Position numbers and translations under genes: made by a program. Below the pieces are notes generated by a model. That model searched no databases. It was given only the letters and a program-made list of their open reading frames with translations, and had not been told where the DNA came from. From positions 1 through 53,157 of the forward strand of contig DDXT01000036.1 of the NCBI GenBank assembly GCA_002347755.1: a DNA stretch of 53,157 bases, read 5' to 3'. Numbering within the stretch: position 1 is the stretch's first letter; the number at the start of each line of letters is the position of its first letter. Source of the stretch: Bacillales bacterium UBA2253 (GTDB lineage: Bacteria > Bacillota_I > Bacilli_A > ML615J-28 > CAG-698). Below, in pieces: positions 9,551 through 44,385 of this stretch.

Positions 9551-9610
9551 ATCGTACCTTCGCAAATTACTATGGTTTATTATACCATTTTTCTGATCAA
9601 ACAAAAGAAA

Positions 9611-9630
9611 AATGCTAGATTTCTAGCATT
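9611..9630. repeat. Flanking copy 1 of the duplicated dnaJ terminator hairpin
   Basis: aatgctagatttctagcatt. It is the exact reverse complement of 9801-9820: the stems are identical and only the central loop bases are flipped. On the minus strand it is followed by the T-run tttcttttgt. Confidence 0.85.
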
Positions 9631-9800
9631 TCAGACTGATGACAAACCTCATTTTCAAAGATGGGGTTCGTTTATTGTTCCACAACCATCTTGAAAAAAC
9701 CAAAAAAACACTTTTTTAGACTCGAAAAAGATATCTTTTTGGTGCCATTGTCCCATTTTATGACAAGAAAAAACGAGCGTTGACTTTGTCAACGCTCTGA
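9631..9800. mobile_element. Miniature TIR-bounded element (MITE-like), copy 1
   Basis: 170 bp, ~94% identical by eye to 32021-32189. Imperfect terminal inverted repeats TTCAGACTGATGACAAAC / TTCAGAGCGTTGACAAAG (14/18). Three internal hairpins. Confidence 0.7.
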
Positions 9801-9820
9801 AATGCTAGAAATCTAGCATT
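9801..9820. repeat. Flanking copy 2 of the duplicated dnaJ terminator hairpin
   Basis: aatgctagaaatctagcatt. It abuts and overlaps the dnaJ stop codon. Confidence 0.85.
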
Positions 9821-10938
9821 TAACTTTTAAAAAATTTCTTAATCTTATCAAAAATCGAAGATGATTTTTCATCAGTTCGCGATAATTTCAAGAACAGGTC
9901 TTTTTGTTCCGCTGATAATTTCGACGGTGTGATCAAGTTGGTGATGACAAATTGATTTCCGGCCATTCCGGTCCGGGAATTGTAAATTCCTTTGTTGGCC
10001 AATTTGAATTTCGTTCCGGTTTGGGTTCCGGCCGGAATTTTTAGATTGACATTTCCGGTCAGAGTCGGAATTTCAATGTTGTCACCCAAAGCCGCTTGGC
10101 TGAAAGTGATCGGCATCTCCAGGATAATGTTCAAATCATCGCGGATGAATATCTCATGCGGTTTGACGGAAACATTGACGTACAGATCGCCGTTCATGCC
10201 GCCATTGGCTCCGGCTTCGCCGTAACCCGACAGTTTGAATCCTTGGTTGTCATCAATTCCCGAAGGAATCTTGACTTTGATCTTGGTGGGTTTGCGAACC
10301 CGGCCTTCGCCGCCGCAGACCGGACATTTATTCTTGATTACTTTGCCTTTTCCGCCGCAAGTCGGGCAGGTTTGTTGCGTTTGGATGCGGCCGAACGGGG
10401 TATTTTGCTCGATCACGATCCGCCCTTGGCCCCTACATTTTGGGCACACGCCAACATCATTCTTGGATTGGGCACCCAAACCGGCACAAGCCGAGCAAGT
10501 GTCATATTTCGTGATGCTGATCTCTTTCTCGCAGCCAAAGGCCGCTTCTTCAAAAGAAATGGTAAGCGTGGTCCGCAGGTCCGAGCCGCGGCTGGTAGAA
10601 CTGGACGCGGATTCGCGTCTTCCTCCTCCGAAAATGGAAGAGAGAATGTCCTCAAAACCACCGAAGCCGCCAAAACCACCGCCGCCGAAATTAAAGCCTT
10701 CAAAACCCTGCCCCATATTCGGGGACTCATGACCAAATTGATTATATTGCTCCCGTTTAGCCGGGTCGCTCAAGACTTCGTAGGCTTCCTGAACCTCTTT
10801 GAATTTTTCGGTGGCTTTGGGTTCAGTGCTGACATCAGGATGGTATTTCTTGGCGAGGGCCCGGTAAGCCTTCTTTATTTCATCATCGGTGGCAGTCTTG
10901 GAAATTCCCAGAACTTCATAATAATCTCGTTTGGCCAT
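9820..10938 (-). CDS. dnaJ: Molecular chaperone DnaJ
   Basis: J-domain with HPD, G/F-rich linker, four CxxCxGxG zinc-finger repeats. Confidence 0.97.
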
Positions 10939-26778: not shown

Positions 26779-26921
26779 TAATAATTATAAGGTAAAAGCC
26801 CTAATTATGCAAATAATAAGTTCATCAGAAAACTAACAAAGACCATTTGAATTTTTTCTGCCTTTAGAAAAACATACTGCCAAAAAAAAAGAGCTTTTTT
26901 CGCTCCTTATTAACTTTGATT

Positions 26922-26939
26922 ATGTAACTTAGTTGGTAG
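26922..26939 (+). repeat. Island repeat copy G (aTGTAACTTAGTTGGtaG)
   Basis: 15/18 match to CTGTAACTTAGTTGGGGG, plus-strand orientation. Confidence 0.8.
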
Positions 26940-26950
26940 TGTAAGTATAA

Positions 26951-26970
26951 CTGTAACTTTGTTGGTGGTC
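26951..26970 (+). repeat. Island repeat copy F (CTGTAACTTtGTTGGtGGTC)
   Basis: 18/20 match, plus-strand orientation. Forms a hairpin/palindrome with copy E. Confidence 0.8.
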
Positions 26971-26971
26971 T

Positions 26972-26989
26972 CCCCCATAAAAGTTACAG
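26972..26989 (-). repeat. Island repeat copy E (CTGTAACTTttaTGGGGG on minus strand)
   Basis: 15/18 match, opposite orientation to F, 1 nt away. Confidence 0.7.
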
Positions 26990-27185
26990 CTTTTTTATAA
27001 TAACACGTTCTTTTCAAGATAAGTGTTGCTGGTTCCTTTTCGGGAAAAGAGCAAATTGAATAAACAAGCAAATCTAAAAAGACGTTGAGGAAAATCGGTA
27101 AAACATTTACACTTATTCAAGACATACCAAGAAAAAAGTGTAAATTGTATTGAGAAAGGCATTCGGTTGAAACCGGATGCCTTTA

Positions 27186-27213
27186 TTTTGACCCCCAACT
27201 AAGTTACAGAGCC
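27186..27213 (-). repeat. Island repeat copy D, longest unit (GGCTCTGTAACTTAGTTGGGGGTCAAAA on minus strand)
   Basis: It shares the GGCT flank with copy A and the TCAAAA flank with copy C. Confidence 0.9.
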
Positions 27214-27333
27214 CTTTTATCGAATACCGTCGCATCTACCTAATTTATGGTTCCTTTTGCTTTTTAAAAACTTTTGATCGTAAAGTTGAGCTTCTTTTTA
27301 ATTTGGCAGTTTACTTGCCAAAAGTTCTTTGGA

Positions 27334-27837
27334 TTATATTTTCCTTTGCGCATTGCTTTTATTAAAGAAAGAAAAAACAAACATCGAAACGCATGAAATC
27401 ATATTAATAGCAAACAATATTATGGCGCCAATACCAATCGATGGTATTTGGTTGGAAAAAATATATTTAGTTGACATCACATCAGCAAAATGTATTAATG
27501 CAGGTAATCCAATAGCGTTGCTTATAAAGAACAAAAGAATCAAGACATAGAAAACACCCTTAGGTAATACTTTTTTTAGATTGGATTTATCTTGAAGAGA
27601 TATTAATCCTATAATCAACATTATCATAGAGAGCATAAAAATAACTAAAGAAATAATGGTAATGATTGGGCCCTCATCATATGGGGAATTAAACCATGAG
27701 AATAATTCGTAGCCATTATAAAATGATGGTATTAAGCCTTCAAACACAATAAATGGAGTCAAATACAATATTAGGTTGATTATTCCTAATACGATTAAAC
27801 AAAAACTATTGAGGTTTTTAAAAATATTATTTTTCAT
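27334..27837 (-). CDS. Small multi-pass membrane protein, unknown function
   Basis: MKNNIFKNLNSFCLIVLGIINLILYL..., about 5 hydrophobic helices. ATG at 27837 follows GAGGAAAAC (trimmed from 27888). AT-rich codon usage. Confidence 0.6.
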   Translation of the reverse strand: MKNNIFKNLNSFCLIVLGIINLILYLTPFIVFEGLIPSFYNGYELFSWFNSPYDEGPIITIISLVIFMLSMIMLIIGLISLQDKSNLKKVLPKGVFYVLILLFFISNAIGLPALIHFADVMSTKYIFSNQIPSIGIGAIILFAINMISCVSMFVFSFFNKSNAQRKI

Positions 27838-27847
27838 GTTTTCCTCA

Positions 27848-28297
27848 CTAAGTCGTAATATGCAAGAAACACTTGATGCAATAAGCAATAGGGTCCGGAA
27901 ACTGAATCTCTATATTATGTTCTTCAAGCTTACTATACCCACACTGTCTGCATGTTGCAATATGATATTGAAAATCTCTTGGGAAATAATTACCAGCATA
28001 AGCATGTGTACAAAGAATACTAATCCCAGAAGAATTATATGAAGAGAAAGTAATGTTATCACTTCCTGTTGTTAGCCAATTACCGACTTGCCCTAAACGC
28101 AACGTAAAACTAGAAGAACTTGTATTGTTAGAATGCCTCAAAAAGAATACATTGCTATTTCCGGCATCTGAAGCAACAACAGTTCCAATAGAATTTACAA
28201 GTTCTAAATTATATTTTGTAAATACTGGGTTAATTGCGATGCCGCCATTGGATGGATTAGACCCACCCCAAACAGAATTAAATCTTTTGACCCCCAA
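27848..28297 (-). pseudogene. 5'-truncated ORF (Ser/Asn/Gly-rich region plus C-terminal H/C-rich CxxC...CxxC segment)
   Basis: The 149-codon frame has no ATG and no SD. It opens at a TTG inside repeat copy C, immediately after the repeat's in-frame TAG. Confidence 0.5.
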
Positions 28298-28308
28298 CTA
28301 AGTTACAG
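28285..28308 (-). repeat. Island repeat copy C (CTGTAACTTAGTTGGGGGTCAAAA)
   Basis: Perfect core; TCAAAA flank shared with copy D. Confidence 0.9.
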
Positions 28309-28316
28309 GCGAAATA

Positions 28317-28334
28317 CCACCAACTAAGTTACAG
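28317..28334 (-). repeat. Island repeat copy B (CTGTAACTTAGTTGGtGG)
   Basis: 17/18 match. 26 bp start-to-start from C. Confidence 0.9.
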
Positions 28335-28349
28335 GTTGTATTTCATATA

Positions 28350-28371
28350 CCCCCAACTAAGTTACAGAGCC
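28350..28371 (-). repeat. Island repeat copy A (GGCTCTGTAACTTAGTTGGGGG)
   Basis: Perfect core; GGCT flank shared with copy D. 33 bp start-to-start from B and 27 nt after the regulator stop. Confidence 0.9.
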
Positions 28372-28397
28372 AAAACTTTTTCATTGATTAATCATGG

Positions 28398-31258: not shown

Positions 31259-31951
31259 TTATGTCATCTTTTGTTGCTCCAAAAGACTGAAATAACGGTT
31301 TTTTCCGATGATGATGTGATCAACCACCAAAATATCCACCATTTTGGCGGCTTGGATCAATTTCTTCGTCACCATGATATCTTCAGCGCTCGCTTCGGGG
31401 TTGCCGCTCGGATGATTGTGAGCCACGATGATGGCCGTCGCCGAAAGTTTGAGAGCCCATTTCAAAATGTCGCGGGGATTGAAGATGGTCTGGTTGACCG
31501 TGCCGATGGTAACGGTTTTTTTGGCAATTACTTCACTTTTGTTGTTCAGGTAAATGCAAACTAAAGATTCTTGCGATAAATGTTGCATGGAATCTTTCAG
31601 ATACAGGTAGGATTGGTACGGGCTGGTGATTACCGTTTGCGATGACAGCGGAATGTTGATTCGCTTCCCTAGTTCAATGGCGGCCAGAATTTCGATGGCT
31701 TTCGCTTCCCCAATCCCTTTTATTTGCATCAGTTCGGTAATCGTTGCTTCATTTAATTTGTCTATGGATTCGAAATGAAAAAGCAAGGTTTTCGCCACAT
31801 CGAGCGCGGAAGTGTTGGCACAGCCCGTTCGCAAGACAATGGCCAGTAACTCATGAGTGGCCAGGGATTGAACTCCGGCTTTTCGCAGTCTTTCCCGCGG
31901 CCGTTCGTCAATGGGCATCTCTCGAACCAAAAAACTCATAAAGGACCTCAT
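31259..31951 (-). CDS. radC: RadC-family JAB-domain protein
   Basis: ERPRERL, HhH region and HNHPSG JAMM motif. The start could be 31951 or 31939. Confidence 0.88.
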   Translation of the reverse strand: MRSFMSFLVREMPIDERPRERLRKAGVQSLATHELLAIVLRTGCANTSALDVAKTLLFHFESIDKLNEATITELMQIKGIGEAKAIEILAAIELGKRINIPLSSQTVITSPYQSYLYLKDSMQHLSQESLVCIYLNNKSEVIAKKTVTIGTVNQTIFNPRDILKWALKLSATAIIVAHNHPSGNPEASAEDIMVTKKLIQAAKMVDILVVDHIIIGKNRYFSLLEQQKMT

Positions 31952-31995
31952 TTCCGCTTATATATTAGAACAAAATCAGTTTTTTTCGTCAAAAA

Positions 31996-32020
31996 AGAGA
32001 TGAAAATCAATTTCATCTCT
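31996..32020. repeat. Flanking copy 1 of the duplicated folC terminator hairpin
   Basis: agagatgaaaatcaatttcatctct (10-bp stem, 5-nt loop), identical and direct to 32190-32214. On the minus strand a T-run follows it. Confidence 0.9.
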
Positions 32021-32189
32021 TCAGACTGATGACAAACCCCATTTCCAAAGATGGGGTTCGTTTATTTTTCCACAACTATCTTGAAATAACAAAAAAACAC
32101 TTTTTTAGACAAGAAAAAGATATCTTTTTGGTGCCTTTGTCCCATTTTATTACAAGAAAAAATGAGCGTTGACTTTGTCAACGCTCTGA
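32021..32189. mobile_element. Miniature TIR-bounded element (MITE-like), copy 2
   Basis: 169 bp, ~94% identical to 9631-9800, with the same orientation relative to the flanking minus-strand genes. Confidence 0.7.
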
Positions 32190-32214
32190 AGAGATGAAAA
32201 TCAATTTCATCTCT
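32190..32214. repeat. Flanking copy 2 of the duplicated folC terminator hairpin
   Basis: Identical 25-mer, 4 nt from the folC stop. Confidence 0.9.
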
Positions 32215-32218
32215 TGTT

Positions 32219-33487
32219 TTATTTAAATTTCGATAATAGCTCGCTGACGAAATACAGGCTGCCGCAGAATACCGTGATTTGATCCTTTTTGGCTTTGACT
32301 TCCGCGAGGATTTTGTCCACATCTTTTTCCATTCGTTTGTTAGGATGTTTGGACAACTCAAAAATCGTTTCCGGAATGTCGCTGCGTTTGTAATTGTAAC
32401 GCGTAAAAATGATCTCGTCGGCGACGGTGTCAAGCATGGGGATCATTTTATCTTTGGCTTTATCCGCCGATACTGCAAACACGATGCACAGGCGTTTTTG
32501 ACCTTTGATGACTCGCAAAAATTCCGTCAACCGCGTAACGGCATCAATGTTGTGAGCACCGTCGATGATGATGAGCGGATCCCGGGAAACAATTTGCAAG
32601 CGACCCGGCCAATAAGTCTCCCAAATTCCCTGATGAATCAATTTGTTGGAAAGCGGTAACCCATATCGTTCGCGAAGGACTTTGGCTACGACCGCCGCCA
32701 AACTGGCGTTTTCGGTCTGAACAATTCCCAGGAGTTTGGTGCGAAGACCCTTAAATTCCATATAATCGAAAGCCGTATCGTCCAGATTTACATCAATGTT
32801 TTTAATGTCCTTTTTGTCAACCAGAATCAATTCGCTCCCATGGGCTTGGCAGCTTTCCTTAAATTGCTTCAAAAGCTGATCATTTTTGATGGTTACTAGC
32901 GGAATGCCGTCTTTGACGATTCCCAGTTTATTAAAGGCGATCTCCTCCAAGGTATCACCCAACACATTCATATGGTCAAAAGTGACATTGGTGATGACGG
33001 AAACCAGCGGGGTAACAATGTTGGTGGCATCAAGCCGCCCTCCCAAACCGACTTCCAAAGTCACAAAATCCAGTTCTTTGATCCGGGAAAAAAACACGTA
33101 GGCAATCAAAGTCACGAACTCGAAGAAAGTGGGGAGTTCGATTCCCTGAGCTTCGATCTCCGGATATTTTGATAGCAGATAATTTCCTATTTCCAATAGG
33201 TCGTCATCCGAAATGAATTGGTCATTATAAGAAATTCTTTCGTTGAAACTGACCACAAACGGCGAAATGTATGATCCGACGTTATAACCGGCTTTTCGCA
33301 GAATGCTCTTCACAAACGAAACCACGGATCCTTTTCCGTTGGTCCCGCCAACATGAATGTACTTAATGCCCTCGTGCGGATTCCCGTAAACGGCGCTAAG
33401 TTTTCGCATTTTTTCCATCGATACTTTGGGTGAGTGGCGCTTTTGGCTCTCGATCCAAGCAATCAATTCTGGTGCATTGGTAAACAT
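32219..33487 (-). CDS. folC: Bifunctional folylpolyglutamate synthase/dihydrofolate synthase
   Basis: HVGGTNGKGS P-loop, Mur-ligase middle and C-terminal domains (IIDGAHN). Confidence 0.9.
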   Translation of the reverse strand: MFTNAPELIAWIESQKRHSPKVSMEKMRKLSAVYGNPHEGIKYIHVGGTNGKGSVVSFVKSILRKAGYNVGSYISPFVVSFNERISYNDQFISDDDLLEIGNYLLSKYPEIEAQGIELPTFFEFVTLIAYVFFSRIKELDFVTLEVGLGGRLDATNIVTPLVSVITNVTFDHMNVLGDTLEEIAFNKLGIVKDGIPLVTIKNDQLLKQFKESCQAHGSELILVDKKDIKNIDVNLDDTAFDYMEFKGLRTKLLGIVQTENASLAAVVAKVLRERYGLPLSNKLIHQGIWETYWPGRLQIVSRDPLIIIDGAHNIDAVTRLTEFLRVIKGQKRLCIVFAVSADKAKDKMIPMLDTVADEIIFTRYNYKRSDIPETIFELSKHPNKRMEKDVDKILAEVKAKKDQITVFCGSLYFVSELLSKFK

Positions 33488-36169: not shown

Positions 36170-36396
36170 CAAATAAAAAGTCCTTAAGTTTTTGCTTAAG
36201 GACGATTGTGCGCCGTGGTACCACCTTATTTCAACATTGCTGTTGCGCTCATTTCCTTTAACGCAAATGCCACGGACGAAACTACTTGGTTCATTTCATC
36301 AACTCCAAGGCGACTTTCACAACTTCCCAATCGGACTTCACACCAACTGTCCTTCTCTGGTTTGGGGAGGGCTGCTACTCTTCCTCTTCATCGTTT
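36170..36396 (-). promoter_or_regulatory. T-box riboswitch leader of valS
   Basis: On the minus strand: GATGAAGAGGAAGAGTA (GA/S-turn region), AGAGA bulge, candidate specifier GAAA-GTC-G (GUC = Val, 36314-36312), T-box GGTGGTACCACGGCG (36225-36211), terminator gtccttaag...cttaaggac + T-run (36203-36171). Confidence 0.88.
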
Positions 36397-36402
36397 TTGT
36401 TA

Positions 36403-44030: not shown

Positions 44031-44049
44031 GATTTAAAGGACGTATTCT

Positions 44050-44385
44050 GTAAGCCTTGTTCTGTTCTTCTTTCGAAGCGGTAATCATTTATCTCTGTTT
44101 TAAAGCAGTCTTGACTTCGTTCGATTCCGTCATCAAGATTCCCCTACCAAAATTTGGGTTTCTAGCTTATGGGGTTTACCCGTTCCACTCCTCTCGTTTC
44201 CAAGAGGCATCGTCACTGTGGCACTTTATGAAAACTAGCCATTTGAAAGGTGTTGTTTTCGCCATCGCATTCCAAGCGTCCTAACTTATTAATTAATTAG
44301 GCATAAACATTACAGCATCACAGCATGTGCTAGCAAGGACTTTCCTAACGGACTTCAAGAGTCCGCTCGATTACCCGAATACGGC
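44050..44385 (-). ncRNA. rnpB: RNase P RNA, bacterial type B
   Basis: On the minus strand: TTCGGGTAATCG, AGGAAAGTCC, AAAGTGCCACAGTGACG, GTGGAACGGGTAAACCCC, GAAACCCAAATTTTGGTAGGGGAA, AGATAAATGATTACCGC, CAAGGCTTACAGAA. These blocks are collinear with B. subtilis rnpB. P1 pairs CGTATTC with GAATACG. The ends are approximate (+/-5 nt). Confidence 0.93.

Follow-up and report, generated by a model that had tools for sequence, protein, structure and literature searches.

The non-coding element between folC and radC in the window (the whole 53,157-nucleotide stretch of contig DDXT01000036.1 from Bacillales bacterium UBA2253 that was analyzed) is very probably a MITE of the ISEfa7-like branch of the IS1182 family, which a DDE transposase acting in trans would insert into hairpins while duplicating the whole stem-loop. 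The element has been inserted and has duplicated its target; across the family the duplications are centred on a hairpin, the tips match those of full-length IS1182 elements, and these full-length elements behave in the same way. The original prediction, which had described two copies of a mobile element in the window (copy 1 between dnaJ and rsmE, copy 2 between folC and radC), is supported both in its observation and in its core interpretation.

For copy 2 it had been claimed that the core is flanked on both sides, in direct orientation, by one 25-mer (AGAGATGAAAATCAATTTCATCTCT) with a 10-bp stem and a 5-nt loop. This 25-mer occurs exactly twice on the forward strand of the window (31996-32020 and 32190-32214), with no copies expected by chance (100 shuffles). 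A dispersed repeat, named beforehand as an observation that would count against a target duplication, is not what is seen, as only the two flanking occurrences were found. Identity runs one nucleotide further on each side, yielding 27-mers (31995-32021 and 32189-32215) that fold as an 11-bp stem with the 5-nt loop ATCAA; because this loop is asymmetric, the repeat is direct and not inverted. The core was correctly recognized as the element, with boundaries that had been placed one base too wide on each side (32021-32189 instead of 32022-32188). It is 93% identical to the core of copy 1 (9632-9799), and a 1-nt indel in copy 1 disrupts the reading frame of its sole ORF (47 aa), for which reason the core is considered non-coding. 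An overview of all features is given in Table 1.

Table 1. Positions in the window of the element, its target hairpins and the adjoining genes. By definition the plus strand of the element is read from its left tip towards its right tip, and transcription from folC arrives at the latter.
Feature	Position	Strand	Basis or remark
Flipped-loop hairpin (9610-9631), 168-bp core (9632-9799) and ancestral-loop hairpin (9800-9821) of copy 1	9610-9821	+	
radC (next co-directional gene)	31259-31951	-	NF000642, 249 bits
radC-proximal target hairpin (31995-32021) with original T-run TTTTGACG (gene strand)	31987-32021	-	Aligns to empty sites
Core of copy 2, 167 bp, non-coding	32022-32188	+	93% to copy 1; absent in four related genomes
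Left terminal inverted repeat CAGACTGATGACAAAC	32022-32037	+	Same in 60/61 matching public-genome stretches
Left subterminal hairpin AACCCCATTTCCAAAGATGGGGTT with T-rich tail	32035-32068	+	Terminator scan; kept in three Bacilli species
Central palindrome AAAAAGATATCTTTTT	32114-32129	.	Read from sequence
Right subterminal hairpin GAGCGTTGAC-AAA-GTCAACGCTC, then ATTTTTTCTT on the gene strand	32154-32186	-	Terminator scan, fold
Right terminal inverted repeat CTTTGTCAACGCTCTG	32173-32188	+	15/16 to CTTTGTCAACGGTCTG, right tip of full-length elements L118-L130
folC-proximal duplicated target hairpin, 27 nt, 11-bp stem, 5-nt loop	32189-32215	-	Exact repeat; single copy in relatives
folC (terminator hit by the insertion)	32219-33487	-	TIGR01499, 354 bits

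All genes around both copies are on the minus strand (valS, folC and radC for copy 2; dnaK, dnaJ and rsmE for copy 1), and the predicted neighbours dnaJ/rsmE and folC/radC were assigned correctly. The true start of radC is likely at 31939, the database relatives of RadC being 226 aa long; these relatives are labelled only as uncultured 'Bacilli bacterium' or as Acholeplasmataceae-like MAGs. The window has a G+C content of 44.6% and contains a T-box leader upstream of valS and a class B RNase P RNA (36195-36400 and 44046-44382), both ordinary and consistent with a Bacillota host.

The origin of the flanking repeat can be read from related genomes. In four of them (L002, L003, L004 and L006, with RadC 94-95% identical) folC is followed by one hairpin and the T-run TTTTTTGACG, in a folC-radC spacer of about 80-90 nt; this is an ordinary intrinsic terminator. 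In the window the order after folC is hairpin, 167-bp core, hairpin and TTTTTTGACG. Since four relatives show the empty site, the flank is a target-site duplication of the whole folC terminator hairpin. On the gene strand the folC-proximal hairpin now runs into the tip of the element in place of a T-run, and the radC-proximal hairpin with its T-run is the surviving original folC terminator. Both window hairpins share the loop base G (C in three of the four empty sites), so that the terminator of the window lineage itself was the source of the duplication. An empty site is also found for copy 1, in a relative (L131) with one AAATGCTAGATTTCTAGCATTT hairpin and a T-run between dnaJ and rsmE. The flanks of the two copies are indeed unrelated in sequence, and the claim that they derive from the target and not from the element holds at both sites.

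A third copy adjoins the terminator hairpin of a 425-aa gene downstream of radC in L004, and the same terminator is empty in L002. Relative to the gene its orientation is opposite to that of both window copies; the shared orientation that had been pointed out is therefore true of the window pair and is not a rule (see also below). As expected of a dispersed repeat, the short-read assemblies L001 and L004 break inside the element. With empty sites at copies 1 and 2 and dispersed copies elsewhere, the proposal of a MITE-like insertion stands.

The terminator that bears the L004 copy lies, in the window, in a spacer that draws attention for another reason. From the 423-aa gene to the O-methyltransferase gene (26779-28397) this spacer measures about 1.6 kb, against 171 nt in L002. 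The extra DNA holds a 184-aa ORF (27334-27888, minus strand) that has no Pfam match and at least five copies of the motif CTGTAACTTAGTTGG(G/T)GG (direct at 27186-27209, 28285-28308, 28311-28334 and 28344-28367; inverted at 26915-26947), and may be another inserted element. A similar motif adjoins a MITE copy in L039.

Copy 1 differs from copy 2 in that its flanks are exact reverse complements (loop TT against AA) and not a direct repeat. Comparison to the empty site shows that the dnaJ-proximal hairpin keeps the ancestral loop and that the distal one is flipped. Exact inverted flank pairs were found three times: at copy 1, in L045 and at site B of a full-length IS. Loop inversion in short perfect palindromes recurs here at a few per cent, and the element itself offers an example: its right tip sits in a perfect 10-bp hairpin formed by an extra CGTTGAC, whose loop (32174-32176 in the window) reads TTT in the majority of copies but AAA in about six (L021, L038, L039, L045, L092 and L111). 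The 3-nt loop of this right-end palindrome thus flips repeatedly, like the loops of the three flanking hairpins. Given these TTT/AAA flips, we propose that the three inverted pairs probably arose by loop inversion after insertion, in which case a special insertion mechanism would not be needed.

To describe the family, the 21-nt left tip was scanned against one public genome per species (61 stretches), and a right-tip scan of metagenomes returned 45 stretches plus several further subfamilies. Left-tip matches are present in the Bacilli MAG JBFXGS01 (13), in MAG CAYQUB01, which carries a close RadC relative (8), in a MAG labelled Desulfovibrionaceae (2) and, unexpectedly, in Enterobacterales (about three dozen, in Buttiauxella, Serratia, Cedecea, Scandinavium and Dryocola); the 21-nt tip is identical in MITEs of Enterobacterales and of uncultured Bacilli. 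The single betaproteobacterial match (L017) is probably due to chance. Further unannotated copies with diverged tips were obtained with Blast in Klebsiella, and the matches in a plasmid collection are intergenic copies on chromosomes of Klebsiella and Providencia, likewise without annotation. Among 5,426 E. coli genomes none matches the enterobacterial form, and the window element has no match among annotated plasmids or phages; tip-only queries of annotated collections gave chance matches only, and viral contigs gave one chance match, within a phage gene. None of the copies examined in annotated records carried an annotation.

Some of these genomes deserve a separate remark. MAG CAYQUB01 is labelled 'uncultured Bacteroidales' yet has a Bacilli-type RadC (P0002, L005) next to its eight tip matches (L016, L018, L027, L045, L054, L056, L058 and L062), and the Desulfovibrionaceae-labelled MAG CAYJOQ01 (L015, L031) holds a variant of 154 bp; this may reflect errors of taxonomic labelling or of binning, or else transfer of the element across phyla. 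The draft of Buttiauxella warmboldiae CCUG 35512 has a dozen contigs that stop within the element, at a depth of 20-80 nt (L009, L019, L022, L024, L025, L028, L034, L036, L044, L053, L057 and L059), from which it follows that the element is a major cause of assembly breaks there and must be present in high copy number. An orthologue of a yidA-like 270-aa gene is adjoined by copies in Cedecea colo (L026), Serratia sp. (L066, truncated) and Klebsiella aerogenes (L070). The duplicated hairpins in L026 and L070 differ, which suggests independent insertions into the terminator of one gene rather than one old insertion. Finally, an enterobacterial copy at 6716-6900 of L011 has two different flanking hairpins (gggccgcccggagggtggccc and aagccgccggcaggcggct) and may be a recombination product of two copies.

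Throughout the family the element is 137-192 bp long, with conserved tips and subterminal parts and an interior that varies by host; other subfamilies have a different central palindrome at the position of AAAAAGATATCTTTTT. The general characteristics of MITEs are all present: a length below 300 bp, no coding capacity, IS-like terminal inverted repeats, a duplication as compared to the empty site, and multiple dispersed copies. In almost all copies both tips are immediately adjoined by a stem-loop whose sequence is unique. Other genomes contribute some 40 more copies, which adjoin duplicated hairpins of mutually unrelated sequence, while matching flanks are absent in about 12 of some 50 copies. 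Copies lacking hairpins or duplications had been named as evidence that would speak against terminator targeting; most copies do adjoin duplicated hairpins. Judging from flanking A or T runs, most targets are terminators, and these include the terminators of housekeeping genes (folC, dnaJ, yidA and others).

The lengths of the duplications and their position relative to the stem-loop, which the original prediction had proposed to tabulate, were determined for 38 independent, non-redundant insertions. The duplication always comprises a complete stem-loop and measures 16-32 bp (median 21); its centre is offset from the hairpin dyad by 0.09 ± 0.71 nt (34/38 within 1 nt). Its length is correlated with the span of the hairpin (r = 0.83), and the stem-loop accounts for 94% of the duplicated bases. 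Orientation relative to the gene is unbiased (13 against 9, plus 16 insertions in bidirectional terminators). It might be argued that the transposase simply makes a long random stagger of roughly 20-27 bp and that the association with terminators results from selection, the structure of the hairpin not being read. Intergenic 3' regions are after all the least harmful for insertion, and many MITE families are enriched there (PMC3049150). Random insertion followed by selection would not yield the register described here, however, with the dyad centred within 1 nt, a length that follows the hairpin and nearly all duplicated bases in the stem-loop, and we consider such an explanation highly unlikely. 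The geometry instead agrees with the targeting of intrinsic terminators that had been predicted.

The element folds much better than shuffled sequence (z = -6) and has a terminator-like hairpin near each end. The left subterminal hairpin resembles an inward-facing terminator for transcription arriving from the left; the right one is a terminator-like, inward-facing site which folC transcripts would meet first. These two hairpins and the strong folding could also fit a module with a function in the host (for example a small RNA gene or a terminator/insulator cassette) that owes its spread to recombination and not to transposition. Yet the element is absent at the same site in genomes with RadC 94-95% identical, its interior differs between species while the tips are conserved, and its target duplications are precise. 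Moreover, Rfam has no family for the element at gathering or permissive thresholds (window and six loci), and no promoter-like site was found in it. Altogether this leaves a host module with a very small probability, and a transposed MITE as the preferred reading.

No transposase gene was found in the window or in any MITE-bearing locus (multi-copy ORFs were checked among all MITE loci), and because of this we can only infer mobilization in trans. Candidate sources are nevertheless available. In a metagenomic contig (L114) a 477-aa ORF is bounded by a perfect 16-bp terminal inverted repeat, CAGACTGTTGACAAAC, which matches the left tip of the MITE at 15/16 positions. The ORF scores 351 bits on the NCBIfam model for IS1182 family transposases (NF033551, cut-off 270) and has the Pfam domains DUF772, DDE_Tnp_1 and DDE_Tnp_1_6. 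Its homologs (56-84% identity) are common in the same kinds of samples, some of them under the name 'IS1182 family transposase [Bacilli bacterium]'. Full-length elements L118-L130, retrieved by protein similarity alone and not by their tips, are about 1.65 kb long and have the tips CAGACTGTTGACAAAG and CTTTGTCAACGGTCTG, with a hairpin at every flank. Between the MITE tips CAGACTGATGACAAAC/CTTTGTCAACGCTCTG and the IS tips CAGACTGTTGACAAA(C/G)/CTTTGTCAACGGTCTG 15 of 16 positions agree at each end, and at the right end homology extends past the tip (MITE AAAAAATGAG[CGTTGAC]TTTGTCAACGCTCTG, IS AAAAAAATGAGTTTGTCAACGGTCTG). The flanks of these IS comprise a 28-nt direct duplication (site A), a 20-nt loop-flipped pair and one hairpin of ~58 nt; left and right flanks were paired across contigs, as the metagenome contigs that run through the IS are chimeric.

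Annotated elements from cultured bacteria are arranged in the same manner. Plasmid pLIS32 of Listeria monocytogenes (NZ_MZ127841.1) carries a gene annotated as 'IS1182 family transposase' between the tips CAGACTGTAGACAAAG and CTACAGTCTG (the former agreeing with the MITE left tip at 13/16 positions), and this IS is bracketed by the 21-nt hairpin AGACAGCCGCAATGGCTGTCT, which is repeated in direct orientation on its two sides. The tip motif also opens ISEfa7 of Enterococcus faecium and an IS of Lactococcus. A full-length element with exactly the tips of the window element was not found (best 15/16 at each end), nor was a full-length partner of the enterobacterial MITE subfamily. Other candidates were dismissed: the neighbours of the L037 copy are ordinary genes, and none of six right-end matches of a 'second class' (L073, L075, L097, L103, L105 and L116) is a full-length IS, L103, L105 and L116 forming another MITE subfamily with tip TAGACTGATGACAAAC. 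At 1949-1990 of L114 the IS right tip GTTTGTCAACAGTCTG is directly followed by AGAGCGTTGACTTTGTCAACGCTCTG, which has the right-end hairpin and tip of a MITE; this points either to insertion of the IS into the hairpin at a MITE end or to a chimeric contig.

Direct repeats in the IS1182 family range from 0 to 60 bp according to ISfinder. The element shares its ends with transposase-encoding elements and has hairpin targets with a duplication of variable length, as expected of an IS1182 derivative. An ORF matching NF033551 with DUF772, DDE_Tnp_1 and DDE_Tnp_1_6 is present in the full-length relatives and absent from the element, which is therefore filed as a non-autonomous IS1182 derivative and not as a member.

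The matching tips also bear on two other possible origins. A comparison to the long duplications of the IS1202 group had been recommended, and a MITE derived from an IS1202-family element would be in line with the size of the duplication: 27 bp here, as in IS1202 itself, and within the 16-28 bp of the long-duplication subgroup (IS1202, ISTde1) (PMC10132070). Only this length is alike. IS1202-family elements have 5'-TGT...ACA-3' ends and TnsB-like transposases, with no target preference found in the long-duplication subgroup and with no reported hairpin target (PMC10132070), whereas the tips here are CAGAC...TCTG, match elements whose transposase reaches 351 bits on the IS1182 model, and enclose a duplication that varies with the hairpin. 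An IS1202 origin is close to refuted, and we leave it next to no probability.

The second possible origin involves an HUH enzyme that moves a single-strand, hairpin-dependent element (PATEs of IS200/IS605 type, or REP/RAYT type). Such enzymes recognize DNA hairpins, and the element both has subterminal hairpins at its two ends and adjoins hairpins. IS200/IS605 elements, on the other hand, leave the target unduplicated and enter it 3' of a fixed tetra- or pentanucleotide, and REPs share one conserved hairpin sequence, so that REP/REPIN (RAYT) systems spread one palindrome genome-wide. The flanking hairpins here are all different, duplicated and already present in the empty sites, and the element has true terminal inverted repeats as are common to DDE elements. 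An HUH origin is accordingly judged very improbable, and the ISEfa7-like IS1182 branch remains the preferred source.

The steps by which such a MITE would be inserted can be outlined from the tips and the duplications. A full-length relative from the ISEfa7-like branch (tips CAGACTGnnGACAAA) would supply the DDE transposase, which would bind the two 16-bp tips. Its target would be a DNA palindrome able to form a hairpin or cruciform, in practice nearly always an intrinsic terminator. Strand transfer is expected on both strands in a dyad-symmetric manner, no more than one or two bases away from the 5' feet of the stem, after which gap repair would copy the whole stem-loop to both sides of the element. 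It would then be the hairpin, and not a fixed ruler in the enzyme, that determines how long the duplication is: 27 bp in copy 2, 16-32 bp at other sites and ~58 bp for one IS. The proposal is compatible with recognition of any of three target forms, namely a cruciform, a hairpin in single-stranded DNA or a symmetric duplex. A hypothetical pathway drawn for IS1272 by Wan et al. (pathway b, Fig. [quoted passage not shown]

For transcription the insertion may have limited effect. A folC transcript would pass first the proximal hairpin without a T-run, then GAGCGTTGAC-AAA-GTCAACGCTC followed by ATTTTTT, and then the original terminator. Because both ends of the element carry inward-facing terminator-like hairpins, termination of the upstream gene is probably kept whichever the orientation of the insertion. 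All the same, a single terminator is replaced by the series hairpin, terminator, terminator, hairpin, which may alter read-through and the structure of the 3' UTR.

A broader scenario is possible, and we put it forward tentatively, as somewhat more doubtful than not. The transposases of this branch might read DNA shape and attack the 5' feet of a cruciform or of a hairpin exposed during replication, and might have spawned an unrecognized, cross-phylum superfamily of terminator MITEs that is near-neutral for transcription. If so, the duplication (16 to ~58 bp) would copy any stem-loop that is hit, and the MITEs would bring their own two-way terminators.

The findings have some practical consequences as well. 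Standard MITE and IS finders expect short duplications of fixed length and would therefore miss these elements or misplace their boundaries. A second consequence is that short-read assemblies break at these elements, as in L001, in L004 and at many contig ends of Buttiauxella. Furthermore, the tight centring on the dyad provides a clean natural dataset on cruciform or hairpin recognition by a DDE transposase. In the IS1182 family this question has so far been raised via IS1272 alone, whose insertion removes the hairpin and leaves no geometry to be read.

Our literature searches (the main IS-family review lay outside them) returned no published account of these MITEs, of their presence in Enterobacterales, of whole-hairpin duplication or of the dyad-centred geometry, and searches by tip sequence gave unrelated primer matches only. 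Hairpin targeting as such is already known from the staphylococcal IS1272/TnSha1 of the IS1182 family, which inserts into terminator hairpins guided by structure, without sequence specificity, in both orientations and repeatedly into the same hairpin (PMC4923244; PMC5678879). IS1272 has also been reported with tandem duplicated ends (PMC5678879). According to passages in both papers that cite Siguier et al. 2015, some IS1182 members target palindromes (PMC4923244; PMC5678879). IS1272 removes part or all of the stem-loop and makes no duplication (PMC5678879; PMC4923244), whereas the elements described here duplicate the stem-loop as a whole and show no such replacement; behavior thus differs within the IS1182 family.

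Other mobile sequences offer partial likenesses. SPRITE of S. pneumoniae was considered as a match but is another element: its ends are AAAA/TTTT, and it lacks a defined duplication (PMC3049150). The classical bacterial MITEs (RUP, Correia/NEMIS, ERIC and Nezha; overview in PMC10969869) are likewise short, non-coding, intergenic and present in many copies, with terminal inverted repeats and mobilization in trans by a related IS (which would apply here too), but their duplications are short and fixed, where here a structure of variable length is duplicated. A group IIC intron has the structure of a group II ribozyme and is inserted after a terminator without duplication; the element of 167 bp has no Rfam intron match and does have a duplication. 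For RUP, Correia/NEMIS, ERIC and Nezha the duplication is typically TA or a few bp. A mechanistic analogy can be drawn with CRISPR spacer integration, in which Cas1-Cas2 attacks a partly palindromic repeat at its two ends in a staggered fashion and the entire repeat is thereby duplicated, even though that enzyme is unrelated, specific for the repeat sequence and without homology. The closest likeness is with the ISEfa7-like branch of IS1182: the tips agree (left CAGACTGnnGACAAA, right ...GTCTG), the elements adjoin hairpins, and in pLIS32 a 21-nt stem-loop is duplicated, the difference being that these IS are about 1.65 kb long with a DDE transposase of ~470 aa and the window element is 167 bp without a gene. 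Overall, the element behaves like members of an established family and does not represent a new class.
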